Under the pieces are notes generated by a model. It saw only the letters and a program-made list of their open reading frames with translations. It did no database searches and was not told the DNA's origin. From a virus (lineage: Duplodnaviria; Caudoviricetes), in the IMG/VR virus record IMGVR_UViG_3300029288_000129, positions 25,810-89,809 of that record: a DNA stretch of 64,000 bases, one strand, 5' to 3'. Made by a program: the position numbers and the translations under genes. Position 1 is the first letter of the stretch; every line of letters starts with the position of its first letter. Positions 2,640 through 42,225 of the stretch are shown in pieces.

Positions 2640-5600
2640 CTACAGGTTATCCATCGTGTTTTTAAGAACCTTCAACTCGTCTTTGAGCCGGTGCGCCATC
2701 ACATTGGCAAGACCCAAGGGGAGCCGCAGTTCCCGAACCTCTCGTTCCAATTCGGTGATTGATGCGCGTATCGCCTTCGGGTCCCGGCTCATCGGCACAA
2801 GGCTTGCCGTGACCCAATTCTGAGTATGGGTCTCGTTATAGATTTGCCGCGCCTTTATGCCGATCCTATCCGCTATCGGCCGCATCACCGCACCGACCGG
2901 CCCCGCATAGACGGACTTCACGGCCTGCGCCAGTGACAGCACTTTACGGGTCAGTGCTTCCACGCGGTCCCCATGACTCGTCTGTAATTCGGCTCGTGTG
3001 GCCATCCGCTTCATCTCCTGCCGTTTCTGTTTGAGGAGCCCCAAGTCTTTGACGAGGTTGCGCACCGACAATATCTTGTCTTCTTCCGTTTTCAGCAATG
3101 CCGTGGACTCCGCGAGTGCGCCTCGTACCTCATCGGCCTGCGCCTCGGTCAGCGCGATGAGCCGTCCGTCGTCGCTGAACCAGAAGTTGTCGCCGGTCCT
3201 ATAGAACTCCGAGTCTCCATGCACCGCATAGGTCTCGTCGGTCATCGGTCCCTTGGACTTGGCCACGGCAGTCCATCCTTTCTTCATCAGTCTCCGCAGC
3301 CCTTCCTCATACTCCTTTCTATGTTCTTGTTCGGGTTGACTGTATTCTTCTGTGGCCATCATTCCTTTTGTCTTTTCGACATTCTCCATGTATTGTTCAA
3401 ATGAAAGCCCGTTCTTTTTTTCGTATTCCGCCTCTTCTTTACTCAAGGAAGCCTTGACGGACTTGGCGGTGGCCGCCATGTTCTTTTTCAGAAGGTCTTT
3501 GAACATCTTCACTTCGTTCTCCGAGCGGAGGCCGATATCGTATGTCTTCTCCGTGTCGTTGTCGCCCACCACTTCGTTGGCGGCAAAAGTGACAACATAA
3601 GTGGGCTCTTCGGTCCCCTTCTGTTTCTTTATCTCGTACCCCTTGCCGATAAAAGTGACCTTGCCACGGATATTCTCCGGTAAGTCGTCTTTCTCGGTCC
3701 ATGCCTTGATACGAGAGGCCGCGACATTGGCAGACTTGGCTTTGGCGGCAATCGGCTTCCCTATACCATGCTTCTCCATGAGCCGATCCAGTTCCTTCAT
3801 CACATAGGCTTCGTCACCGTTCACGATGTTGCCACCACCCGCATCGTCGAGGAACCAAGTCAACTTGCCTCGGGTGCCGGGATACTGCTGGATATACTCC
3901 TTCTCGATGCGAAACATGACCTTCCCGTCCGGCCCCTTGATCTCGGTGACTCGTTCGGCCCGAGCCCTTTGAGCCGTCACTTTCTCCATGTTGCTCAGTT
4001 GCTCCACGCGGCGACGCTCCGTATGTCCGTCCTCGAAACGCACCAGAGCCGTCTCCTTCCCGTTCTCGGGGCTACCGAGGACATAGACCTCGACCTCTTT
4101 GCCCACGCTGGTTCTTGCCCTGTATTTTGTCGCGCCCATTGTTTCGTTTAGGTTCCAATCGGTGTGGGCCGATGCGGTGGCCCGTTGCGCCTCGACCCGC
4201 TCCAACTCGTCGGCGGTGGCCCAACTCTCGGCTGCGGAATCGTCTATGCCCTCGCCTCTGACCTCATATACGGTTTCGATCTGATCCCAATCGGTTCTCT
4301 TCGTGTCGGTATCAACTATTTCTCCCACCTTGCCTTCAAAGTATGTTCCGGGGAGAAACCGTACCGTATCGCCTACCCTAAGGAACTCCACCTTCCTTGC
4401 CTCCGTCGATCTTGTCGCGTTGACATAGTACAGTTTCCTGCCCGCCTCTTTTGCGTTGGCGGCCTGCTCTTGCGCTCTCGCTATTTCCCATTCTTCGGAA
4501 GGCACATACCAACCATAGATCGCCTCTTCGTTTCCTGTATTGGGGTTCTCCTCAATCTCATAGCCCCCCATCAAGAGCGTACCGTCTTCCGCCTGCCCAG
4601 TAAACGCCGGATTGGATGCCGCCATCATTGTTTCGGTAGGCGACATCTTGCGATACCGTTGCCCCGGCTTGAGTGACGCGGCCTTCTTGGCTCCTCTCGT
4701 CTTTGCCAGCATCGCCTTAGCCTGCGCCAGCCAGCCCTCGGCACTCTTCGCTCCGGTAGCCGACAGTTTCTTCCACAACCGCCGCGCCGCCGCAAAGTCG
4801 GGTTCCTTCCCCGTCTTATCGGCGATGCGTGCCGCGAGTTCGGCAATGCTGGTTTCACTGTTGTTCGGGTCCGCCGGATACATGATGATGTCTTCGTATT
4901 GTCCCCGCACCCAATCGTCGCTGAACCGGTCCTCGTCCAGCCTTATGGCCCTCACCGGTTTATCCATATCGATCTCGGCCCCCGGTATATTGTCCTCTAT
5001 TGATTTGGTCAGCGCGTGCTCGACACCCCACAGCACATCCTCGGTGCCATACTCGCTGTTCACCGCGTATTCGTAGGTGGCGGTGCCCTGTATCTTCACC
5101 GAGAAGTCACTCTCCACGGTCAGGCTCTCGCGATCCAACGATACGGATTCAAGCCGCATATACGCCTCGGCTCCCGCCGCATCGGTCTCTTCCTCATCGT
5201 AGCGGTAAAACCTCGTGTCGATCTGCCCCATGATATAGTCGGCAGCCCAGTCACGGAACTGGTCCTGCGCCAAGTAGCGACCCGCCACCGTCTGTGGGTC
5301 CACATTGCCTTCACAGATCAAAGTGAAGGTTGCGGTCGCTTTGGTCCCCGCCGCCGTCACTTTACGGGCCGTTGGGTTCAGGACCATCTCCCTTTTAGTC
5401 GGGTCAACCCACACCACGATGAACGCGGGCTGTCCCGGCACTTTTGAGTCGTCGATCTTATAGGCCACCCGTTCCCCGCCCTTGGTGAGCCATCCCTGCC
5501 AGTCGGCTTCGAGCCCGTACCTTTTCATGTACTCGGCCATGGCCTGTCCATCGGCTCTCCACGGGATACGGTCGGTCTGTGCGTTATTGGCGCGAGTTCT

Positions 5601-6665
5601 CATAGGCGGCTCCTTAGTTATCGTAGTTGAAGTCCGTGAGCAGGTGCGCGTTGCCTTGGCTTCCGGATTCTTCTCCGCCTTCAGTTCCTTCTCCATCGCC
5701 TCAAGGGCTTCGTAGTAATCCGCGAATTCCTTGAGGTGGTCCGAAGCGATCCACTCGGTCACCATGTCAAAGGGAGGGAACTCTCCGTTCTCGGCGTAGT
5801 ATTCCTTGATCTGGTTATAGGTGGTGCCGTGTTCCTTCTCAACGGCTGCGCCTTCCTCAACCGCCTCGGGGCTCACGCCTTCGGGCACCGCAACGGAAAG
5901 GTCGGCGGCGGCTTTGGCTTTCGCCCGGTACATCCCGAAGTCTTTGGGGTTGGTCGATCCTTTTATCTCGGGGTTCGCCTCCCACAGCGCCTCAATGCTT
6001 TCATACTTGCCGCCCGTCTTGTTGATGCGGTCAAGCAATCCATACATTTCGTCGTAGGCACGCAACTCTTCTATGTCGGCGTACACATTCTGAACCTTAT
6101 CGTGCCAAAGGGCCGTTGTCTGGTGCCTCGCACGCACGCCTGCGCGGTGGGACTTGGATGGAATCGGAAGTTTTGTTCCGTTTCCCTTGTCAGCCGTAGC
6201 ACTTTGACCAACTTCCGAATCGGAAGTTTTGGCGGCGCGGTACTCTTTGACAAGATCGGGTATGTACTTCTCAAGTTGACTCAAAGCATCCGATTCTGTC
6301 TTCCCGCCCAGATGATCAAAATATCCCATCGCGCTTCTCGGGACTCTTTTGTCGGACTGCATCTGGGTTTTAAGCGAGGATCGGCTTGACTTGACTTTGG
6401 CGGCGATTGCTTTCCGCTGAGCCGTCGCCACTTCGCCACGCATCTCCGCAAGTTTCTCCTGCCTCTCCCGAGTCTCCTTGGCGAACCGCGCCTTAAAACT
6501 GACGCGGCGATCTATTTCGTCCATGAACTGTTCCGACCCCGTTTGGTCCAACACGATGCCGAGGCCCGCGACCACGCGCCGACTCGCAACCGTTTTCTGC
6601 GCTCCCGCTACCGGACGCTGCGTTCCCATCCGTTTCGCTTCGACGCGCCGCCTCAACATGCTCAT
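2640..6665 (-). CDS. Large multi-segment protein, probably an internal head/ejection protein
   Basis: 1341-aa ORF: small globular segments (SH3/KOW-like LRVGDTVRFLPG) separated by Lys/Arg/Ala-rich linkers. Confidence 0.8.
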   Translation of the reverse strand: MSMLRRRVEAKRMGTQRPVAGAQKTVASRRVVAGLGIVLDQTGSEQFMDEIDRRVSFKARFAKETRERQEKLAEMRGEVATAQRKAIAAKVKSSRSSLKTQMQSDKRVPRSAMGYFDHLGGKTESDALSQLEKYIPDLVKEYRAAKTSDSEVGQSATADKGNGTKLPIPSKSHRAGVRARHQTTALWHDKVQNVYADIEELRAYDEMYGLLDRINKTGGKYESIEALWEANPEIKGSTNPKDFGMYRAKAKAAADLSVAVPEGVSPEAVEEGAAVEKEHGTTYNQIKEYYAENGEFPPFDMVTEWIASDHLKEFADYYEALEAMEKELKAEKNPEAKATRTCSRTSTTITKEPPMRTRANNAQTDRIPWRADGQAMAEYMKRYGLEADWQGWLTKGGERVAYKIDDSKVPGQPAFIVVWVDPTKREMVLNPTARKVTAAGTKATATFTLICEGNVDPQTVAGRYLAQDQFRDWAADYIMGQIDTRFYRYDEEETDAAGAEAYMRLESVSLDRESLTVESDFSVKIQGTATYEYAVNSEYGTEDVLWGVEHALTKSIEDNIPGAEIDMDKPVRAIRLDEDRFSDDWVRGQYEDIIMYPADPNNSETSIAELAARIADKTGKEPDFAAARRLWKKLSATGAKSAEGWLAQAKAMLAKTRGAKKAASLKPGQRYRKMSPTETMMAASNPAFTGQAEDGTLLMGGYEIEENPNTGNEEAIYGWYVPSEEWEIARAQEQAANAKEAGRKLYYVNATRSTEARKVEFLRVGDTVRFLPGTYFEGKVGEIVDTDTKRTDWDQIETVYEVRGEGIDDSAAESWATADELERVEAQRATASAHTDWNLNETMGATKYRARTSVGKEVEVYVLGSPENGKETALVRFEDGHTERRRVEQLSNMEKVTAQRARAERVTEIKGPDGKVMFRIEKEYIQQYPGTRGKLTWFLDDAGGGNIVNGDEAYVMKELDRLMEKHGIGKPIAAKAKSANVAASRIKAWTEKDDLPENIRGKVTFIGKGYEIKKQKGTEEPTYVVTFAANEVVGDNDTEKTYDIGLRSENEVKMFKDLLKKNMAATAKSVKASLSKEEAEYEKKNGLSFEQYMENVEKTKGMMATEEYSQPEQEHRKEYEEGLRRLMKKGWTAVAKSKGPMTDETYAVHGDSEFYRTGDNFWFSDDGRLIALTEAQADEVRGALAESTALLKTEEDKILSVRNLVKDLGLLKQKRQEMKRMATRAELQTSHGDRVEALTRKVLSLAQAVKSVYAGPVGAVMRPIADRIGIKARQIYNETHTQNWVTASLVPMSRDPKAIRASITELEREVRELRLPLGLANVMAHRLKDELKVLKNTMDNL

Positions 6666-11151: not shown

Positions 11152-12903
11152 CTATTTCTCCAGCATATCGGCGATAAACTGTATCTTGGCGGGGTCGCCT
11201 TTGTATTTGCGAAGAAGCGCGACCACCTGATTGGTACTCATCTCGCCCTTTTCGGGGATAATGTCGTTTTCGGGGATAAACACCATCACCTCGCTGGCCT
11301 TCACCTTGCGCCGCGCCTCTGCGTCGATACGAGCCACTTCCTCGTCCGGCGTGTTGATGGCCTCGTGGAGCATGGTCAGGGCAAAGTCGTCGGCGGCTTC
11401 GGGTTCGACCCCGAGGTCTCCGGCGATCTCGCGGAACTCTAGGGCCGACATGGGCCGCTCCGATATCTCTTCGATCAGTTTCTCGGCGGCTTCATCCGGT
11501 ATGTCGGATACCGGCTCCGGCGCGTCTTCGGCGCGGGTGCGCATGGCGGTGACATTGCCGCCCACCTTTTCGATAGCAGCGCGGAGTTCATTCCCGAGTT
11601 GTTTCAGTTGCGACTCGAACCACTGTATCTTTTCATCTTTCGACTTTTTGCCTATACTCGAAGCAATAGCAATTTGAGTCGTTGACAACTCGGCTTTTTT
11701 CAGAGCCGCAAGCATCTGTTTGATGATTGCTTTGTCATCCCCCTCGGCCTTCACCTTGCGGTTGCCCTCTGTAGTGATGCCTTCCGGCTTCTCGGTGGGC
11801 GACGCAAAGCCGCTATAGACCAGCGTGATCGAACGACCGTTGGCAAGTTCCTCGACAAAACCTTTGACGGCGTAATCGGCGAACCACCACACATTGCCGG
11901 TATAAAATTCGCCGTGTTCATCGTAATCGCCGTCGCCGACAAGAAGCCCGTCTGTTAATGCCCCGACATCCTCTGGCTGAACCGCTGTATACCCGTTGCC
12001 AAAAGCGCCGGAAGTGGATGGACCATCAAAGAGGTCATATATTTTATCGTCACCGGCACGCCCTTCTTCGTCAAGCATTTCTTTGATGTCGCCTATGTTC
12101 TCGGGATTGGCCGTCACCTTGATGTCTCCGTTTGGCTGATGCTCAAATCGGAGATATCCATAGTTGCGGGCTCCGCTTTTCGGCGGTTCCCACTCATCTT
12201 CGGCCTTCGCCCGCATCGCCGCCTCGATCTTGCCGGGAAGCGCATCCAGAAGCGACCGTGCGTGGCCCCTCGCCTCCTTCTCGTTGTCGTACATGCCAAA
12301 CACTTCCTTCGCGTCAAGGCCACCCTTGAACTGCCGCTGAAGTTCCTCGACATTGGCAGAGAACAGAATGTCGCTGATCTCGCTTTCCGGATTCGGATAC
12401 ATGACGACCCACACGCGGTCGATCCGTGCGGCTTCCACATGATCTTTATTGTCTCTGGCCCATGCTTCCGCATCTTCCGACTTGGAGAACTCTTCCATGA
12501 CTTTGCCATCGGGGGCTTTAACCTGCCACTTGCCGGAACCTTTGTCCTGCGCGATCTTCCATTTGTTTATGGTCTTGGCCGCTTCCGTTTTTTCCTTCTT
12601 GTCCTTGTCGCCGCTCAGCCGCTTCTGATAGTGATCGGCCTGATGCTCTCTCTCGCCGTTGCTGGGGCTACGGTACGGGTCCGCTTTGCCCCACACCGCG
12701 TCCATCGCCATCTGTTTCAGCGCGTCGAGTACGGTGATGCGCGGATAGTTCTGAGTCATCCAGATGCGGAAGTCGTGACGACCCGGATTCTGAACGCCCT
12801 TGTCCTTACAGAACTTCGCCCATTCCTTGGCAATGCGCTCAAGGTTCTCGCGCTCATACGAGGTGTTGGGGTCGTACTTTTTCTCAGCCGCTTGCGTCTT
12901 CAT
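11152..12903 (-). CDS. Multi-segment virion/internal head protein
   Basis: 583-aa ORF with segments delimited by KTQAA/KTEAA/KIEAA/RKVKA motifs. Confidence 0.8.
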   Translation of the reverse strand: MKTQAAEKKYDPNTSYERENLERIAKEWAKFCKDKGVQNPGRHDFRIWMTQNYPRITVLDALKQMAMDAVWGKADPYRSPSNGEREHQADHYQKRLSGDKDKKEKTEAAKTINKWKIAQDKGSGKWQVKAPDGKVMEEFSKSEDAEAWARDNKDHVEAARIDRVWVVMYPNPESEISDILFSANVEELQRQFKGGLDAKEVFGMYDNEKEARGHARSLLDALPGKIEAAMRAKAEDEWEPPKSGARNYGYLRFEHQPNGDIKVTANPENIGDIKEMLDEEGRAGDDKIYDLFDGPSTSGAFGNGYTAVQPEDVGALTDGLLVGDGDYDEHGEFYTGNVWWFADYAVKGFVEELANGRSITLVYSGFASPTEKPEGITTEGNRKVKAEGDDKAIIKQMLAALKKAELSTTQIAIASSIGKKSKDEKIQWFESQLKQLGNELRAAIEKVGGNVTAMRTRAEDAPEPVSDIPDEAAEKLIEEISERPMSALEFREIAGDLGVEPEAADDFALTMLHEAINTPDEEVARIDAEARRKVKASEVMVFIPENDIIPEKGEMSTNQVVALLRKYKGDPAKIQFIADMLEK

Positions 12904-13396: not shown

Positions 13397-14629
13397 TCAT
13401 CGTAGCACCTCCGAAACTGGCCGTGCCAGACGGCCCCAATCAAGAACCACATTGTGATCCCCAATCGCCTTTCTCATTATGTTTAATGCGCCGTTGACAT
13501 CGGCGTGTATCTGCTTCCCTGTAGAAGAGACAAATAATCCACGGTGTCTTCTCTTGCCGAGATACGGTTCGCGATGTTCGATGGGTTCAAGCGCAAGCGC
13601 ATCACACTTGCTGGTATGCGATTCTTTCTGCTCCACAACATCAATGCAAAACAATCCAGCCTTATACTTGATTTGGTCAATCAAGCGAGCATGAGGCATC
13701 TGCATAAATTTCTGATTGCAGCAATCGCCCATGTGGATGTTTTCCTTCCAGCCCTTGTTTTTGCCAACCACTATTGTGCCGATGTCGTTTTCTTTGCAAT
13801 AGTCAATTATGCAGCACGATGTTTTATGAAGAAAATCTCGAACTCGGTTGTTTCGCTTTAATGACACTTGTTGCAACTGCCGCGTTTTTCCTTTGCCTCC
13901 CGGCAAGCATGACTCAAGAAATGCCTTGCGCTTACTATACCATTGATTCTCGGCTTTCACTCTCCCGCCCTTGACTACAATCGGCTGTCTCTCGCCGGTG
14001 TTGTCTACCATAGTTACGAGATTTGCGACTCCCAAATCAATGCCCAGCACTCGCGATTTATCTAACTTTGCATCTTGGACCTCCTTGTTGTAGACTACCT
14101 CTATCCTGTAAACGCTGCCATACGGAAAAACCCATACTTGGCAGACATCTTCTGGCTTTATGTTTGTCTTAATCGGCGGGATAATGTTCTTTGCAAAATA
14201 TATTTTTCCGTTTTTTACTTTAATGCTGTTTTTAGCAAAAACAGCGGGGTGTCGTCCTTTTTCTTTGTCTTTATATTTTGGCGGGCGCGGTCTTTTTTGG
14301 TTTTTCTGTGGATTCTTATGATATTTTTGCGCGGTTCCAAAAAATGATTTCCATGCGCGATCTACCGAAAAAATTGTTTGTTGCGCAACGGCGGATGGCA
14401 ATGCGCGATAGTCAGGTTGATCTTCTCGCGCATATTGACTCATCAAATCAAACTTGCGCGGCATTGGCAATCGTTCTCTAATTCCCGCATTGTGTCGCTC
14501 CAAATTCTCAAAATAAATTTTTCGGTAATGGTAATTTACCGCATTGTAAAGATTCTTGGTCTTAAAACAAAGATCGTCTATTTCTTTTCCTTTTTTGCGC
14601 TTGATTTGATGAGTTTCCGATAACTTCAT
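13397..14629 (-). mobile_element. tnpB: IS200/IS605-family TnpB (stand-alone, no tnpA)
   Basis: 410 aa: KNLYN, RuvC-I GIDLGVANL, IVVGKNKGWK, ESHTSKC, RuvC-III HADVNGALNI. More AT-rich than its flanks. Confidence 0.92.
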
Positions 14630-17563: not shown

Positions 17564-18493
17564 ATGCATCGCTACGACTGGGAGCCGGAAAAGTATATGG
17601 TTGACACCGCGCATCTTGACGAGATCGAGGATTTGGTTTATCGTCGTCTTTTGGATTACGCATATCTTTTAGAGACTCCTTTGCCAAACAACATTGCCGA
17701 CATAACTAAAAAAATACGGCTTGGAAAGAATCGCATTGACACTGTTTCTGCTGTTTTGCATGAGTTTTTTTATCTAAAAAAATATGCTGAAAACGATATT
17801 GAGAAGGATGGGTGGGCTCACAAAAAGGTTGAGTTGGTGCTTGAAAAAATATATCAACGCAGTGATAAGGCTAGAGAATCTGCAAATGCAAAGTGGGCTA
17901 AATGGTATCGCGCAAATCCTGCGAACGCAGAGCGAACGCAGAGCGAACGCAGAGCGAACGCTATGCAAACGCAATGCGATGGCTCTGCGAATGCTCTGCT
18001 TATTCAAGTACTCAAGTACCCAAAGACTCAAATACTCAAAGACAAAGATAAAAATAATGGGGATACAGTATCGTCTCCTAGCGGAGACTCACCCCCGCAG
18101 CAACAAAAACTTTTTCCCGAAACACAACGGACATTAATTCCATACGATGAGATTGTGAACGAATATAATCGAATTTGCATCAGTCTGCGAAAGTGTCGTC
18201 CACATCTGTCCGATGTGCGGAAGAAAGGGGTTGCAAAAATATATCGATTGCTGGATAACGATATGGATCAAATCAGACTTTTGTTTACAAAGGCCCAAAA
18301 CTCTGCTTTCTGCCGAGGCGAAAGGCCCAACGAAAAGCATCCAAATTTTCAAGCAGATTTTGCATGGCTTATGAAAGAAGAGCCTGCGTTGAGAACACTT
18401 GAGGGTAAATACGACGACAAGAACCCCTACGATTCAGTAGATGAGTTCGGCGAGTCAAAGATGGAGGAAGAAGATGATCGACACCATGAGTGA
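17564..18493 (+). CDS. Phage replication initiator, DUF1376/YdaU-like
   Basis: N-terminal DTAHLDEIEDLVYRRLLDYAY...PLP, C-terminal QADFAWLMK...LEGKYD, internal iterons, and an adjacent DnaC-like gene. Confidence 0.8.
   Translation: MHRYDWEPEKYMVDTAHLDEIEDLVYRRLLDYAYLLETPLPNNIADITKKIRLGKNRIDTVSAVLHEFFYLKKYAENDIEKDGWAHKKVELVLEKIYQRSDKARESANAKWAKWYRANPANAERTQSERRANAMQTQCDGSANALLIQVLKYPKTQILKDKDKNNGDTVSSPSGDSPPQQQKLFPETQRTLIPYDEIVNEYNRICISLRKCRPHLSDVRKKGVAKIYRLLDNDMDQIRLLFTKAQNSAFCRGERPNEKHPNFQADFAWLMKEEPALRTLEGKYDDKNPYDSVDEFGESKMEEEDDRHHE
17921..18058. repeat. Iteron-like 11-bp repeats plus AT-rich 8-bp repeats; probable replication origin
   Basis: Seven 11-bp units (GCGAACGCAGA x3, GCGAACGCTAT, GCAAACGCAAT, GCGATGGCTCT, GCGAATGCTCT) at 17921-17997, then ACTCAAGT/ACCCAAAG/ACTCAAAT/ACTCAAAG and an A-rich run. 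Confidence 0.75.
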
Positions 18494-24745: not shown

Positions 24746-26322
24746 TGCCTGAGTTCCGAATCATCAACAGCGACTGTATCGTGGCGATGCGCGAGATGGC
24801 CGACAACTCGGTCGATGCGATAGTCACCGACCCCCCCGCCGGAATTTCATTTATGGGGAAAAATTGGGACCACGATAAGGGCGGCCGCGATTCGTGGATA
24901 GCGTGGATGTCAGAGGTCGCCAAGGAATGTCTGCGTGTCATTCGGCCCGGAGGTCATGCGTTGGTGTGGGCGATTCCGCGCACCAGCCATTGGACCGCGA
25001 TGGGATGGGAGAATGCGGGATGGGAAGTAAGAGATCGTATCGCTCATCACTTCGGGCAAGGATTCCCGAAAAGTATGAATGTTTCTATAGCGTTAGACAA
25101 GTCTGCCGGAGCGGAAAGAACGGTTGTCGGAAAGAAAGATGTCGGTCCCGATATGCGCGGCGGCAACTTTGAAAATGCTGAGGGCCGCATGATGGCCAAC
25201 ATTACCGAGCCGACCACCGAAGCCGCGAAGCAATGGAGCGGATGGGGCACCGCGCTGAAACCGGCGACCGAGGACTGGTGGCTTTTCCGAAAGCCGGTTG
25301 AAGGTACGGTTGCCGCAAACATTCTCAAGCATGGGACTGGGGGGCTAAACATTGATGGATGCAGGGTAGAAACGGATGATCTAAAAGGCAAGGTCTACAA
25401 CAACAACAACACCGGCTGGAAATGCACTTCCGCGCCATCCACGATCCACGGCAATGAACAGGGCCGCTGGCCTGCGAACCTTGTCTTGTCGCATTCCGAG
25501 GGGTGTCGGTGTGCCGGGACAAAGAAGGTAAAGGGAGTTGCCGGTGGGACAGCCCCCGTTGGCGGGAATTACAAACTTGCCGAAAACAGAACGCAACAAC
25601 CATATTTCAACTACGCCGACCCAGATGGCACCGAGACCGTTGAGGCATGGGAATGCGTCGAGGGTTGCCCGATCAGGTTGATGGACGAGCAGAGCGGCAT
25701 ATCCTCCACCAAACGAACAGAAAATCCTTCAAACTGTAGTGGAAACACATGGGGAGGAACAATACAGACGAACAGGAGCGCAAGGGGGCACACCGACTCT
25801 GGCGGCGCATCCCGCTTCTTCTACTGCGCGAAGGCAAGTAAGTCGGACAGGGATGAGGGTTGCGAGGGGATGGACGAGATGGACAAGCGCACCATGAATG
25901 ATTTTGGCGACCAGTCCCAACACAGGTGTAGTGATGGAGCAAACAGAACACAAGGCACGGGCGTATCGAAAGCCCGCAATCATCATCCCACCGTCAAGCC
26001 TACCGCCCTCATGCGCTACCTATGCCGCCTCGTCACGCCGAAAGGTGGTGTTATCCTCGACCCGTTCATGGGTAGCGGGTCAACAGGCAAAGCGGCTAAC
26101 ATAGAAGGATTTAGGTTTATCGGAATAGAGCAGGATGCTGAGTATTGCAAGATCGCGGAGGCGCGGATACAATATGCGCGGAACAATGCGGGGAAAGAGC
26201 CGGAAAAGAAAAATCCTGCCCCAAGAAAACCGACAACATCCCAAGCCGCAGAGCAACCGACACCGGAAAAGCCTGCGACAGTATCGGCGCAAGTCTCTAT
26301 TTTTGAAATTGACAATTCGTGA
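24745..26322 (+). CDS. Orphan beta-class N4/N6 DNA methyltransferase
   Basis: SVDAIVTDPPAG, HPTVKPTALMRYLCRLVT, ILDPFMGSGSTG. Confidence 0.9.
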   Translation: MPEFRIINSDCIVAMREMADNSVDAIVTDPPAGISFMGKNWDHDKGGRDSWIAWMSEVAKECLRVIRPGGHALVWAIPRTSHWTAMGWENAGWEVRDRIAHHFGQGFPKSMNVSIALDKSAGAERTVVGKKDVGPDMRGGNFENAEGRMMANITEPTTEAAKQWSGWGTALKPATEDWWLFRKPVEGTVAANILKHGTGGLNIDGCRVETDDLKGKVYNNNNTGWKCTSAPSTIHGNEQGRWPANLVLSHSEGCRCAGTKKVKGVAGGTAPVGGNYKLAENRTQQPYFNYADPDGTETVEAWECVEGCPIRLMDEQSGISSTKRTENPSNCSGNTWGGTIQTNRSARGHTDSGGASRFFYCAKASKSDRDEGCEGMDEMDKRTMNDFGDQSQHRCSDGANRTQGTGVSKARNHHPTVKPTALMRYLCRLVTPKGGVILDPFMGSGSTGKAANIEGFRFIGIEQDAEYCKIAEARIQYARNNAGKEPEKKNPAPRKPTTSQAAEQPTPEKPATVSAQVSIFEIDNS

Positions 26323-28437: not shown

Positions 28438-28465
28438 TTGACAAGTTTTTCGCAAATGCTATGAT
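28438..28465 (+). promoter_or_regulatory. Rightward sigma70 promoter with TTCGCAA in the spacer
   Basis: TTGACA-AGTTTTTCGCAAATGC-TATGAT (extended -10). Confidence 0.75.
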
Positions 28466-29466: not shown

Positions 29467-31428
29467 ATGAGCGGATTCGACTTTTCTCCGTCGCGGATGA
29501 TAGATTTTAACGAAAAGGAACACCGGTATTTCGTGGATGGCATCGAGCGTCCGTCCGTGTCTCACCTGCTGTCAGAACTCGGTGTCGCGGAAAAATTCGA
29601 TGGCGTAAACGCGGGACTCCTCGCGTATCGCGCCTCGCGTGGCAAGCGGATACACTTGGCGAGTCAATACTATAGCCAAGGCGTTCTTGATCTTGACAGT
29701 GTTGCGCCTGAAGATCGTCCGTTCGTGGACGCGATCATAGCGTTTCATAACGATTTCCCGCGATGGAAAAGCCTGATGCGCGAACGCCGGTTCTATGTGA
29801 AGTGCTTCGACGACGAGGAGCGCGGAGAACTGGGCTACTGCGGCACCATGGACGATGTGATGCTACTGGCTCCGGGACACTATGAGATTCGGGGTCGGGC
29901 CTACGATGTCGGCGAAGACGAGATCGGCCTTTTCGACGACAAGACATCCGCGAGCCTTGCGCCTGCGTATCGGTATCAGGTCAGCGGCGGGTATCTAAAG
30001 GGTATCCGAGAGGGTCTGGACGGAGACGATCTGGACATGCCGTTGATGCAGACTATCTCGACCCTTATCGGCCGACCGGTTCGGAAAATACATTGTTTCA
30101 TCCGGCATCTTCGGCAGGGCCATTACTTCCTCGTGCCGATTCAAGAAGACGAGACTTATCCGCAGTGGGAACAACTGCTTCGTAAGTTCTTCTATCCCCG
30201 CACCAAACTGGATGTCAAAAAAATGATGAGGAACCAGATCGACATGCCAGACACGGTGGCTCGACGATTGGTTCGCATCAAGGCCATGGAGGATGCGCTG
30301 AAGCCACGAAAGGCGGCGGCTCGGGAAGATGCGGTTAAATTGTTGACCCGTGACGGCATGGAGTTTAACGGAGTCGCCGAGATCGGTGGCCGCGAAGTCA
30401 CTTTCAGCAAGAGTTTCGGCGGCTACACGGAGTCTATAGACGACGCGGCGTTTGTGGCCAAACTGTTGGCATGGGACCAGCCGTCTATTACCATGACGGA
30501 ACTTCTCGCGCTACGGGCCTCGTGTAAGGTCAGCGGAGAAACCGAGGGAGCATGGCGGCTCAATGTGGGGAAACCGAAGAAACCGGAAACGAGCGCGGAA
30601 ACGAAAGTGCCGGAGCCTCCCAAAGCCGAAGTCATTCCGGCACAGAAGCCGGAAATGAAGCCGGAAGCGAAAACGGAAGCAAGCAGGGAAAGGAAGGTTT
30701 CCGAAACAACGACAGCCGCCACGACCATTGCCGGTAACACACCGACTCAATCGAAAGCCGTGTTCCCTGTCGGCGGACAGCCAAATTCCACCCCCGCCGA
30801 CTTCGTTGTCCCCAAGTCACTGGTGGACGATCTCCGCGAGGTCGCAAACCGCGTCTTTGAGCGGGCCATTATTCGTCGCACCGAGAATGAGACATTTAAG
30901 GGATGGTCTTTTTCTTCCGAGTTTGAGCATTTCCTGATGGGCCTCGATATGCTGGTCCCCGTAAACACATGGACCGAGGGCATGACAAAGAATTTGATCG
31001 ACGCTTTAATTCGCGAGGAGGTGCGTCGTGAAGAAACGGCGCGTCAACAGAGTCCTCGTTCGGTCAACGAGACTTTAGCCGATGTGCTGGTGCGTACCGT
31101 GATGAGCGCATACGGGGATGACCGGCTCGGCGCACAGAACCGCATCGTTGATTTCTGCCGTGCCAACAAGCGACCGCACGACTTCACTTCTTTCAGCGAT
31201 TCGGATCTCCGCGATCTTATCAATAAGATGGGGGCGGCGGCAGCGAACGAAAAGTTTGCGCGGAAGGACGCTGCAACCGTACCCGATGGGGCCGAATGCG
31301 TTCTTTCGGACGAGGGCCATTTGCGGCCACAGCCGGAACCTGCGCCAGAGCCGAAGCCAAGGCCCAAGACACCGGCCAAAACGAAGGCAAAGAAGGATGA
31401 CCCGAAACAGCCCGGACTTTTTGATTAG
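29467..31428 (+). CDS. PD-(D/E)xK exonuclease-like protein with long C-terminal extension
   Basis: HRYFVDG...PSVSHLL, RGKRIH, YCGTMDD, LFDDKT, YRYQVSGGY; directly after Bet/RecT. Confidence 0.75.
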   Translation: MSGFDFSPSRMIDFNEKEHRYFVDGIERPSVSHLLSELGVAEKFDGVNAGLLAYRASRGKRIHLASQYYSQGVLDLDSVAPEDRPFVDAIIAFHNDFPRWKSLMRERRFYVKCFDDEERGELGYCGTMDDVMLLAPGHYEIRGRAYDVGEDEIGLFDDKTSASLAPAYRYQVSGGYLKGIREGLDGDDLDMPLMQTISTLIGRPVRKIHCFIRHLRQGHYFLVPIQEDETYPQWEQLLRKFFYPRTKLDVKKMMRNQIDMPDTVARRLVRIKAMEDALKPRKAAAREDAVKLLTRDGMEFNGVAEIGGREVTFSKSFGGYTESIDDAAFVAKLLAWDQPSITMTELLALRASCKVSGETEGAWRLNVGKPKKPETSAETKVPEPPKAEVIPAQKPEMKPEAKTEASRERKVSETTTAATTIAGNTPTQSKAVFPVGGQPNSTPADFVVPKSLVDDLREVANRVFERAIIRRTENETFKGWSFSSEFEHFLMGLDMLVPVNTWTEGMTKNLIDALIREEVRREETARQQSPRSVNETLADVLVRTVMSAYGDDRLGAQNRIVDFCRANKRPHDFTSFSDSDLRDLINKMGAAAANEKFARKDAATVPDGAECVLSDEGHLRPQPEPAPEPKPRPKTPAKTKAKKDDPKQPGLFD

Positions 31429-31704: not shown

Positions 31705-32331
31705 ATGGAGACTATGATGGCAAAGAAAAAGGAAGGCGCGTCCTGTATCGAAACAATCCGCAGAACGGTACGGCTCACCGGCATCAAGGATGCGATGTTT
31801 GACCGCTATGCCGGTGACAACAAAACGAAACTGATGTGGCACCAGAAACTGTACATGATACCCGGCACCAGCATTGTGGCAATGCCGACGATCAATATCA
31901 TGTCGTTTCTGACCGCGCACAACACGAACTCGGCTCCGAAGCGGCTTCGCGACAAGCGGGAGTACAAGGACATCTGCAACGCCTGCCTATCGTTTGTCAA
32001 CATCGTGGGGGGCAAGCAGAATCCCGCCTATATCCCGTTTCTCCGCGACGGAGAACCGATAGAGGTCGGCGACTTCGGCGATGAGAGGGACGAGAAGAGC
32101 GGAGTTTATCTTCACCAATCGGTTGCTCGTCTTCCCCTCGGCATACCGAATCCGAAAGAGCGTCCCGTGCTTCCGTTGCCGTGGGAGATCGAGTTCGGCC
32201 TTGAGATATTCCCCAATAAGGAAATCAAGGAAGTCGAGATACGCAATCTTTTTGAGGAAGGCGGGCTTGCTATTGGCCTCGGGACTTTCCGTGGCGTGTT
32301 TGGCAAATTTATGGTATCCCGTTGGGACTAA
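31705..32331 (+). CDS. Stand-alone RAMP/Cas7-like protein
   Basis: 208 aa with RAMP-like layout: beta1 RTVRLTGIKDAMFDRY, IVAMPTINIMSFL, hairpin HQSVARL...ERPVLPLPWEIEFGLEI, and a terminal G-rich loop GGLAIGLGTFRGVFGKFMV. Confidence 0.7.
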   Translation: METMMAKKKEGASCIETIRRTVRLTGIKDAMFDRYAGDNKTKLMWHQKLYMIPGTSIVAMPTINIMSFLTAHNTNSAPKRLRDKREYKDICNACLSFVNIVGGKQNPAYIPFLRDGEPIEVGDFGDERDEKSGVYLHQSVARLPLGIPNPKERPVLPLPWEIEFGLEIFPNKEIKEVEIRNLFEEGGLAIGLGTFRGVFGKFMVSRWD

Positions 32332-32341
32332 TACTTTTTCT

Positions 32342-32704
32342 GGCGTGGCTTGGCGTGGCTAGGCACGGAAAGGCAAGGCAAGGCACTGCGAGGCGAGGTT
32401 TTTTAGTGACGAAACCGGCATGGCGGGGCTTGGATTGGACAGGCAAGGCAAGGCACTGCGAGGCGAGGTATTTAGTGTGAAAAGCGGCGGGGCGCGGCGG
32501 GGCTCGGTGCGGACAGGAACGGAAAGGTGAGGCGAGGCGAGGTTTTTTAGTGACGAAACCGGCTTGGCGTGGCTAGGCATGGCTAGGCGCGGAAGGGCAA
32601 GGCAAGGCACTGCAAGGCGAGGTTTTTAGTGACGAATAGGGATCGGCATGGCTCGGCAAGGCAGTGCGAGGAGAGGAGAGGACAGGCAAGGCAAGGCGAG
32701 GTAA
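32342..32704 (+). ncRNA. Array of five GGH-NN pentamer units; putative guide-RNA array
   Basis: 61 in-phase pentamers (39 GGC, 11 GGA, 7 GGT, 4 TGC) in units starting 32342, 32417, 32486, 32561 and 32640, separated by TTAGTG(AC/TG)(G/A)AA linkers. The repeat is certain; its RNA nature is inferred. Confidence 0.75.
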
Positions 32705-32707
32705 GAG

Positions 32708-33340
32708 ATGAAACCAAAGAGTACCGACATCATTGACGGGACTCGCTACGAGTTCGACAGCCCCGAGGAGATGTGGTTTGCGTGGTGGCTCGAAGAGTTG
32801 CGACAATACGAGGAGATCGGAGAGTGGCGGTATCAAGCCAAGACATGGCAACTCTCGCGGTCCTGCGACCTCTTGTGGTCCGTACAAGGCGCAAGGAAGG
32901 TGTTGGAGCGGTCGAAGTGCCTGCTCCGTGCCCACTCGTATACCGCCGACTTCTCGGTGCGGTGGCGCAACAAGGATTGGATCAATGTGGAGACTGCGGA
33001 GTGGCGCGAATCGGACGGCAATGATCTTCGCATAGTGCCACCGTACAAACCCGACGCGGTGATGCTTGCCACTGGCTCCGATCTCACCGCGTATGTGGAC
33101 ATAAAGGGCGGCTTTGTTCGCGGTCATTCAAAGGCGGAAGCGTTTGAGGTGAAGCGCGGCATCGTGTGGGAACAGCACGGCGACTATATCAACCGTATCG
33201 TTCCCTATACCGCGAAGGGGCCGTGTCTGTTCAAGGCGACCTTTGTGCCGCAACGATTCTTTTTTACCGATAAGGGCCATCAGGCCCGCAAGATACACTT
33301 CCCGGTGCGGCGCATCGAAGAGTGGTTGTCGCCTTTTTAG
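32708..33340 (+). CDS. DUF1064-like PD-(D/E)xK nuclease
   Basis: FDSPEE, YTADF, YVDIKG motifs. Confidence 0.7.
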   Translation: MKPKSTDIIDGTRYEFDSPEEMWFAWWLEELRQYEEIGEWRYQAKTWQLSRSCDLLWSVQGARKVLERSKCLLRAHSYTADFSVRWRNKDWINVETAEWRESDGNDLRIVPPYKPDAVMLATGSDLTAYVDIKGGFVRGHSKAEAFEVKRGIVWEQHGDYINRIVPYTAKGPCLFKATFVPQRFFFTDKGHQARKIHFPVRRIEEWLSPF

Positions 33341-33351
33341 CGGAGGCTATT

Positions 33352-33618
33352 ATGAAAAAACCGTTCTCGTGGCTAAAGTTTTTCAATGTCGTTTTGTTTC
33401 AGTGGTTTTTTATCCGGCTTTCGAGGTGTGATCAGGAGGCAAAGGTGGGAATCGACCCAGAAATAGGGACGCTGCCTTTGCGTTGGTATTCTATCACGGG
33501 TCTGATGTGGCCTACTACCGGATGGAAAGATGACTATAAGATGCTTTTCAACATGGACCCGTTTTACTGGCGAGTCACGCCGATTATGAGGCACCAAGAT
33601 TCTGCGAGGGCGAGATGA
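33352..33618 (+). CDS. Hypothetical protein
   Basis: RBS GGAGG; Trp/Phe-rich. Confidence 0.55.
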   Translation: MKKPFSWLKFFNVVLFQWFFIRLSRCDQEAKVGIDPEIGTLPLRWYSITGLMWPTTGWKDDYKMLFNMDPFYWRVTPIMRHQDSARAR

Positions 33619-41812: not shown

Positions 41813-42225
41813 GGGGATGAGTGGTTTCGAGGTTTTGCGTAGTTTTGTCACCGCAATTCGAGGTCGCCGCTGGCCTCGTAAAACTGCGGCACCAAAGAAA
41901 TGCGAAAGCCTATGCTTTCCTGAAGAACCTGTTTGCCAACCTTGTCGATGCGTTTGTTCCGCAGGCTAACCCCTGTATGGCGTGATCGACTGACAACAGC
42001 CTTCAAACCACCTCAGCGGCGCGGTTTCCTGTCTTGCCGCTGCGGAACAACAGGATAGGCCACAAGGGTCTCTTGGCGAACCTTTGTGATCCGAAACATG
42101 AATCACCAAGACCAGCAGGAAAGTTCTGCCCGTTGAATGCTCTTGCTGTACCGTAACGGGAATAATTGTATCGGTGGCCCGACGAAACAGGATCGACCCG
42201 GGTTCGACTCCCGGCATCTCCACCA
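41813..42225 (+). ncRNA. ssrA: tmRNA
   Basis: 5' GGGGATG pairs with CATCTCC-ACCA 3' (G3.U70 alanine determinant); T-arm CCGGGTTCGACTCCCGG; pk1 CGAGGTC-GCCGC-T-GGCCTCG-TAAAACT-GCGGC; tag ORF 41902-41985. Confidence 0.93.

Follow-up and report, generated by a model that had tools for sequence, protein, structure and literature searches.

A probable phage-encoded VIPR system with five guide units packed directly behind a single RAMP gene

Results

The locus and its phage

The locus described here lies on a viral contig of 89.8 kb (IMG/VR record IMGVR_UViG_3300029288_000129, GC content 54.5%, estimated completeness 77%). It was analysed within a window, by which we mean the whole stretch of 64,000 nucleotides corresponding to positions 25,810 to 89,809 of that record, and all coordinates below are those of the window. 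Genes for a terminase, baseplate and head-decoration proteins, a methyltransferase, RecT and an exonuclease are found on the contig. Around the locus, the order is a promoter-like site, recT, an exonuclease-like ORF of 653 aa, a lysine-rich ORF of 86 aa, a gene for a RAMP protein of the Vipr family (vipr, 31717..32331, plus strand), an array of pentameric repeats (32342..32704) and an ORF of 210 aa (orf210, 32708..33340, plus strand). The promoter-like site (28438..28465, plus strand, ahead of recT) is of the sigma-70 type, with the arrangement TTGACA-16-TATGAT (11/12) and a TG extension. Probably an early transcript carrying both vipr and the array starts here, and no terminator-like site was found on the plus strand between this promoter and position 33468. 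Neither Cas1 nor Cas2 gave a match anywhere on the 89.8-kb contig, and the contig contains no CRISPR array or CRISPR-like spaced repeats. The absence of both, stated in a preliminary description made from the sequence alone, thus holds for the entire contig.

Several other features of the window deserve mention in their own right. ARAGORN predicted a tmRNA of 413 nt (41813-42225, plus strand), whose cysteine-rich tag peptide of 27 aa is unusually long. An ORF of 410 aa on the minus strand (13397-14629) matched the transposase family phrog_506 (E 8e-41), and an IS-type element may be inserted in the phage contig at this point. Two large ORFs on the minus strand, of 1341 aa (2640-6665) and 583 aa (11152-12903), had no PHROG match at E<=1e-5. 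Two adjacent short tandem repeats, an 11-nt unit in about 5 copies and then an 8-nt unit in about 4.6, are found at 17920-18043, in an intergenic stretch before the ORF at 18441.

A RAMP protein homologous to the Vipr of phage SUSP1

The longest reading frame of the vipr gene (31705..32331, plus strand) encodes 208 aa, and we have kept this numbering for all residues. Its C-terminus contains a glycine-rich stretch, GGLAIGLGTFRGVFGKF. The true start is probably the ATG at 31717, which gives a protein of 204 aa, since most homologues have this length and a GGAG (31707-31710) is found 6 nt ahead of this codon. The 208-aa protein did not match any Pfam family at E<=0.1, the curated RAMP models included, and the PHROGs collection returned only a weak match of the Vipr C-terminus to a family of unknown function. 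The family is nevertheless large in the databases searched: at E<=1e-3 it has 2,732 clusters when members are grouped at 90% identity, and grouping at 50% leaves 264 representatives.

Among solved structures, the best sequence match of the family profile was Vipr and not any Cas7; a profile of 86 diverse members hit one of them, the chain PDB 36pp_D, the 'SUSP1 Vipr protein', with an E value of 2.1e-9. A direct hhalign comparison with the Felixounavirus Vipr (the same protein, read from a Felixounavirus genome) gave a probability of 97% and an E value of 8.6e-11. The part that can be aligned covers the C-terminal 58-115 residues, from the base of the thumb to the C-terminus. Within it, R153 of the thumb corresponds to SUSP1 R138 and is invariant across the family, R196 corresponds to R179 and is at least 90% conserved, and F195 takes the place of W178, so that the aromatic character is kept. 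T194 replaces the essential aspartate D177. The motif of the G-loop, GLGTFRG, aligns with GVGDWRP of SUSP1, while H17 and K33 of SUSP1 belong to the N-terminal half and fall outside the alignable part.

The AlphaFold (AF2) model of the protein (pLDDT 96.7, pTM 0.88) consists of a single RRM core with a thumb formed by a beta-hairpin (residues 135-156) and a G-loop (186-200) just before the last strand. All the top Foldseek matches of this model were Csm3/Cas7 subunits (73 matches at E<=1e-3). An exhaustive VIA-align search gave a Z score of 12.8 to Csm3 over 158 aligned residues, and nearly all of the 34 chains with Z>=8 were RAMPs of the Cas7 type. The 208-aa product with its glycine-rich end and the RAMP/Cas7-like fold proposed in the preliminary description, for which structure prediction and Foldseek had been suggested as the check, are both borne out. 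Profile alignment and structural model together make it a homologue of the SUSP1 Vipr of known structure, with a predicted single-RRM RAMP fold, thumb and G-loop.

VIPR systems are known from three 2026 preprints (bioRxiv 10.64898/2026.04.26.720920, 10.64898/2026.04.26.720927 and 10.64898/2026.10.15.759431), a discovery of only months ago that introduced RNA-guided DNA recognition by a gapped code. They consist of the RAMP protein Vipr, of vrRNAs with tandem YNNGG repeats (at least 4, typically 9-16) and an invariable 3' tail, and of accessory vap genes. Seven types have been defined, admitting consensus motifs related to YNNGG/GGY-NN; the only characterised system is of type II, and VIPR has been proposed as the ancestor of the CRISPR RAMPs (2026 VIPR preprints). 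The target is double-stranded DNA, in which two bases out of every three are read. The cryo-EM structure from SUSP1 has one protomer per repeat, with each GGY sequestered by two adjacent protomers and the NN displayed. The simpler arrangement envisaged in the preliminary description, of one GGH bound by each protomer, is a simplification when set beside this structure. The residues that hold the GGY are R138, D177, W178 and R179, of which D177 is essential and hydrogen-bonds G1, and the pocket for the third base excludes purines (2026 VIPR preprints).

Five vrRNA-like units in 363 bp

Between the vipr stop codon, which ends at 32331, and the first GG of the array at 32342 there is a gap of 10 bp. 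From here to 32704, a stretch of 363 bp is organized into five units with 61 pentamers in total (12, 11, 12, 13 and 13). The units measure 58, 53, 58, 63 and 65 nt and are separated by four linkers of 17, 16, 17 and 16 nt; in units 1-4 the final pentamer counted is a 3-nt GGT. Fifty-seven pentamers start with GG, four with TGC and none with GGG. The position, length and pentamer counts given in the preliminary description were reproduced to the base, as were the proportion of GG starts and the absence of GGG. Its wording that the pentamers are in phase is right inside each unit and wrong across units: the phase is constant within a unit and shifts from one to the next, because the linker lengths are not multiples of 5.

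All units share a layout of 5-9 variable pentamers followed by constant ones. Unit 1 (32342..32399, plus strand) has 12 pentamers, six variable ones at the 5' end and then the constant block GGCAA GGCAA GGCAC TGCGA GGCGA GGT; this block, with TGCGA or TGCAA in fourth place, is common to units 1, 2 and 4. Unit 2 (32417..32469, plus strand) comprises 11 pentamers and ends in the same 3' constant block. Unit 3 (32486..32543, plus strand), with nine variable pentamers out of 12 and no TGC pentamer, is the most GC-rich guide of the array. Unit 4 (32561..32623, plus strand; 13 pentamers) is a paralogue of unit 1, shifted against it by one pentamer and sharing 77% of the NN bases. Unit 5 (32640..32704, plus strand; 13 pentamers) reaches the ribosome-binding region of the next ORF, whose ATG is at 32708. 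Over the whole array, the third pentamer position is a pyrimidine in 79% and A in 21%. Nowhere else on the 89.8-kb contig are there phased GG runs of at least 8 pentamers, and none arose in 20 shuffles of its sequence.

Linker 1 (32400..32416, plus strand), TTTTTAGTGACGAAACC, is a candidate processing site. It and linkers 2-4 (32470-32485, 32544-32560 and 32624-32639, plus strand) combine a U-rich start with a TGACGAA motif conserved in the sub-clade. An Rfam search of the array including its linkers found no family and no hammerhead ribozyme at E<=1, and among 14 related loci no ribozyme or other family reached the gathering score. The constant block together with the linker did not fold significantly when compared with shuffled sequences (z between -0.5 and +2), and a small GGUUUU/GAAACC hairpin is present in only 2 of the 4 linkers. 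A hairpin or pseudoknot formed by the constant block and the linker thus finds no support in the folding scores or in the comparison of the four linkers.

Pentamer arrays accompany vipr throughout the clade

The comparison set comprised 99 related loci, of which viral contigs supplied 80 and genomes the other 19. In every one of them (99/99) a run of at least 8 GG pentamers was found on the strand of the gene and no more than 1 kb from it, lying upstream in 78 loci, downstream in 57 and on both sides in 36. Close to the gene there were 1.16 such runs per kb, compared with 0.03 per kb at greater distance and 0.004 per kb on the other strand. The preliminary description had asked whether arrays co-occur with homologues of the protein, and they do so in a strand-specific manner.

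Across 3487 pentamers of the clade, the third position was C in 85%, A in 7.6%, T in 5.7% and G in 1.7%, with positions 4-5 mixed. TGC is the commonest degenerate pentamer of the clade. The 21% of A in the window is at the high end of a range that reaches 63%, and the GGA content showed no association with G-loop residues, the GLGTFRG motif being unchanged whatever the GGA content. GGA triplets and TGC had been suggested as marks of a variant peculiar to this copy. This idea has to be abandoned, given that A is about as frequent as T at position 3 clade-wide, that TGC pentamers are widespread and that GGA does not track any change of the G-loop. The departure from the type II pattern belongs to the whole clade and not to this copy.

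The arrays change faster than their surroundings. Two near-identical phages (L103 and L104) differ at 3 array positions, all of them position 5 of a pentamer, and at 0 of 609 vipr bases. The closest relative of the window (L101, Vipr 87% identical) has an array of fewer units; at the nucleotide level vipr is 83% and orf210 82% identical between the two, whereas only 48% of the array is identical or alignable. NN variation and array turnover amid conserved flanks make this a guide-like pattern, in which the scaffold is fixed and the specificity changes. Across the clade, the end of a unit reads GGCRA GGCGA GGKyT and leads into a series of Ts. Only 16-21 nt separate this end from the next unit in the window and its near relatives, with the consensus GGWTT-T(n)-A(G/T)TGACGAA-NNN, whereas the spacers between units of many other relatives measure about 60 nt and contain hairpins. 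Gaps between units of 30 nt or less make up about a quarter of those in the clade.

Some loci have other arrangements. Unbroken series of 40-65 phased pentamers, far above the size of one vrRNA, are found beside vipr in four viral contigs (L073, L087, L055 and L053) and may be the 'staggered' overlapping arrays of the published work. In L035, L048/L049, L081, L094 and L096, extra pentamer runs on the same strand, 1-4 kb from vipr, may be dispersed or solo vrRNAs.

The clade also includes cultured phages. Homologues in Burkholderia phage vB_E436 and in Paraburkholderia and Burkholderia prophages, with 67-75% protein identity, are located in the phage early region, a few genes from an exonuclease, and are annotated as hypothetical proteins. 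The one from vB_E436 (PQ789831.1, vBE436_00039, record 30424-31038) is 67.5% identical. The gene is flanked by pentamer runs in L001 and L002, both from Paraburkholderia. Compared with the window, these loci have their vrRNAs mostly upstream, single or double and followed by longer spacers that contain hairpins.

Neighbouring genes

The product of orf210 has a weak match to phage proteins of the Holliday-junction-resolvase type. We regard it as a neighbour of the putative VIPR system. Synteny of orf210 is limited to closely related phages (L101-L103), and none of the genes next to vipr in the window recurs beside vipr in 100 other loci. Clustering of the flanking ORFs from 101 loci did not reveal any universal partner. 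The neighbours that do recur are a YqaJ exonuclease (17 loci) and an ERF annealase (11 loci), in 20 loci altogether. With no universal partner among these loci, the clade has no fixed vap, and its vipr genes tend toward the phage recombination or early region. A functional coupling of Vipr with the recombination module next to which it recurs is a further possibility, weaker than the streamlined form considered in the Discussion.

Searches for targets

Targets were sought with the published pattern in which one base is skipped after every two (NNx). No self-target was found on the contig at >=80%, and published VIPR systems have none either (2026 VIPR preprints). Exact NNx scans of the viral collection with units 1, 3 (both in full and with the variable part) and 5 did not return any match. 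Unit 4, with 20 specified bases, had one match, in a 107.6-kb viral contig of 38% GC, which extends to 23 of 24 NN bases; two composition-matched control patterns gave 0 matches. We consider this site a candidate only and not an established target, as the skipped bases fall on codon position 1 and not on the wobble position, the GC content of 38% is far from the 54.5% of this phage, and the only other guide that matches is unit 1, the paralogue of unit 4. In metagenome contigs, a 22-base pattern of unit 3 had no match, and an 18-base pattern retrieved 9 unrelated sites without extension and with scattered codon phase, i.e. at chance level. Compared with 106 VIPR-bearing loci (rival vipr genes or vrRNAs), none of the guides scored clearly above shuffled guides.

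Discussion

Taken together, the data indicate, with a probability that we put at roughly 0.86, that the locus is a phage-encoded VIPR system, in which vipr (31717-32331) is followed on the same strand by an array of five vrRNA units (32342-32704). The assignment is based on the homology to SUSP1 Vipr, the RAMP fold, the NN-variable array on the same strand and a phage context free of cas genes. The preliminary description had named such systems; they are indeed described in the 2026 preprints, and the locus displays those of their defining features that can be computed. It is a new member of the published VIPR family and not a new kind of system. On the other side of the balance are the replacement of D177 by T194, the 21% of A at position 3, the lack of a structured tail or ribozyme, the lack of a conserved vap, when SUSP1 depends on vap1 in natural infection, and target searches that yielded one candidate at most.

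The natural reference is the type II system of Escherichia phage SUSP1 and other Felixounaviruses, which comprises Vipr, vap1 and four vrRNAs (PDB 36pp). In common with it, the window has a Vipr that stands alone, measures about 200 aa and combines an RRM core with a thumb and a G-loop, including the RP motif of the thumb and the G-loop pattern G-x-G-x-aromatic-R-x-x-F-G-[KR]-F. Both systems are phage-encoded without cas genes and have units of 10-13 pentamers on the strand of the gene. The differences are as follows. D177 and W178 have become T194 and F195, and the pentamers are GGC-rich and tolerate A, while those of SUSP1 are GGT-rich. The pseudoknot tail of about 40 nt is absent, and constant terminal pentamers with a linker of 16-17 nt stand in its place. 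There is no vap1, the array following vipr directly, and no upstream vrRNA; instead, all five units are gathered in a single compact array downstream. Hammerhead ribozymes are reported between the vrRNAs of some type I and V loci (2026 VIPR preprints); in contrast to these ribozyme-interspersed arrays, the one described here had none in the Rfam search.

The fold is also that of Csm3/Cas7 of type III CRISPR-Cas systems, as is the expected polymerisation along a guide RNA with a fixed period. However, sequence identity to these proteins is only about 10% and second subunit types are missing, as are Cas10, Cas6, Cas1, Cas2 and a repeat-spacer array. The period differs as well, being 5 nt with 2 read in the locus described here and 6 nt with 5 read in Csm3/Cas7. 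A solo Cas7/Csm3 left in a phage by a degenerate CRISPR-Cas system, next to unrelated repeats, might have been suspected because Csm3/Cas7 have the most similar folds among the solved structures of the fold library, but this reading is close to refuted. Not only do Pfam RAMP models fail to match and Cas1, Cas2 and CRISPR arrays fail to appear on the contig, but the best sequence match with a solved structure is Vipr instead of Cas7, and the solo architecture is shared by more than 2,700 clusters of homologues, arrays being present in 99/99 loci. Only slightly less improbable is that the RAMP gene is real and the pentamer tract is no guide at all but a DNA or RNA element with a different role, for instance as a G-rich, structure-forming regulatory element or as a non-programmable array of binding sites for the protein. 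That no target is established for any of the five units and that the 3' part of the units is constant rather than variable would fit such a role. Variation specific to NN beside a conserved GGC, along with turnover of the array, is however what a guide predicts, and the homologue displays its NN for pairing with DNA in the cryo-EM structure.

A further alternative accepts the VIPR assignment and gives it a destructive outcome, with orf210 (32708-33340) acting as a vap and the targets being cut. Predicted nucleases are carried by types III-V, for which destruction of the targets has been proposed (2026 VIPR preprints), and a nuclease here would fit that scheme. The gene starts 4 bp past the array, and its product, like the orthologues in L101 and L103, weakly matches the Holliday junction resolvase family phrog_190. 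We nevertheless hold this to be unlikely, given that an orf210 homologue stands beside vipr in 0 of the 100 other loci and that its synteny is confined to near-relatives in which the whole early region is syntenic. It fits the surrounding RecT/exonuclease recombination module, and modules with YqaJ or ERF recur elsewhere.

For the VIPR system proposed here, a mechanism can be outlined by homology to SUSP1. One transcript, which probably starts at the early promoter at 28438, would carry both vipr and the array, and cuts in its U-rich linkers would release RNAs of roughly 70-80 nt. In the light of the searches that found neither an Rfam ribozyme nor a fold above shuffled sequences, we infer that a host endonuclease or another activity cuts within the U-rich, single-stranded linker. 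Vipr protomers would then polymerise along each RNA, one per pentamer, with the GG and the third base sequestered and the NN displayed, and the filament would bind double-stranded DNA, reading it as NNx NNx with one base skipped after every two. Once bound, it would silence the transcription of a competing phage, satellite or prophage. Since vipr has neither a nuclease nor any other vap as a conserved neighbour in the clade, binding and repression are to be expected rather than cleavage. In the natural infection by SUSP1, both vipr and vap1 are needed to hold off the satellite (2026 VIPR preprints). The last two to five constant pentamers and the linker probably replace the structured 3' tail of type II. 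Going one step further, we tentatively suggest that the clade represents a streamlined form of VIPR, with neither accessory protein nor structured tail, in which the roles of cap and processing signal would both fall to the constant pentamers and the U-rich linker, and the pocket with T194 and F195 would accept C, A or T; among the possibilities considered, this one is plausible without being probable.

The locus documents a well-populated branch of VIPR that differs from type II at precisely the points where mechanism and use as a tool matter. Both vap and the pseudoknot tail are missing, another residue stands in place of the essential aspartate, and the third base may be a purine. Five guides with linkers of 16-17 nt fit into 363 bp. 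Owing to these differences, nature itself provides in this branch a test of what VIPR can do without and of the way in which compact arrays are processed. If the streamlined form proves true, no smaller self-sufficient RNA-guided DNA binder would be known than this protein of 204 aa with its RNAs of about 70 nt, expressed as a compact multiplex array. Genes annotated as 'hypothetical' in cultured Burkholderia phages and in Paraburkholderia prophages belong to the Vipr family, which places the clade in tractable hosts, and Burkholderia phage vB_E436 offers a tractable experimental model for it.
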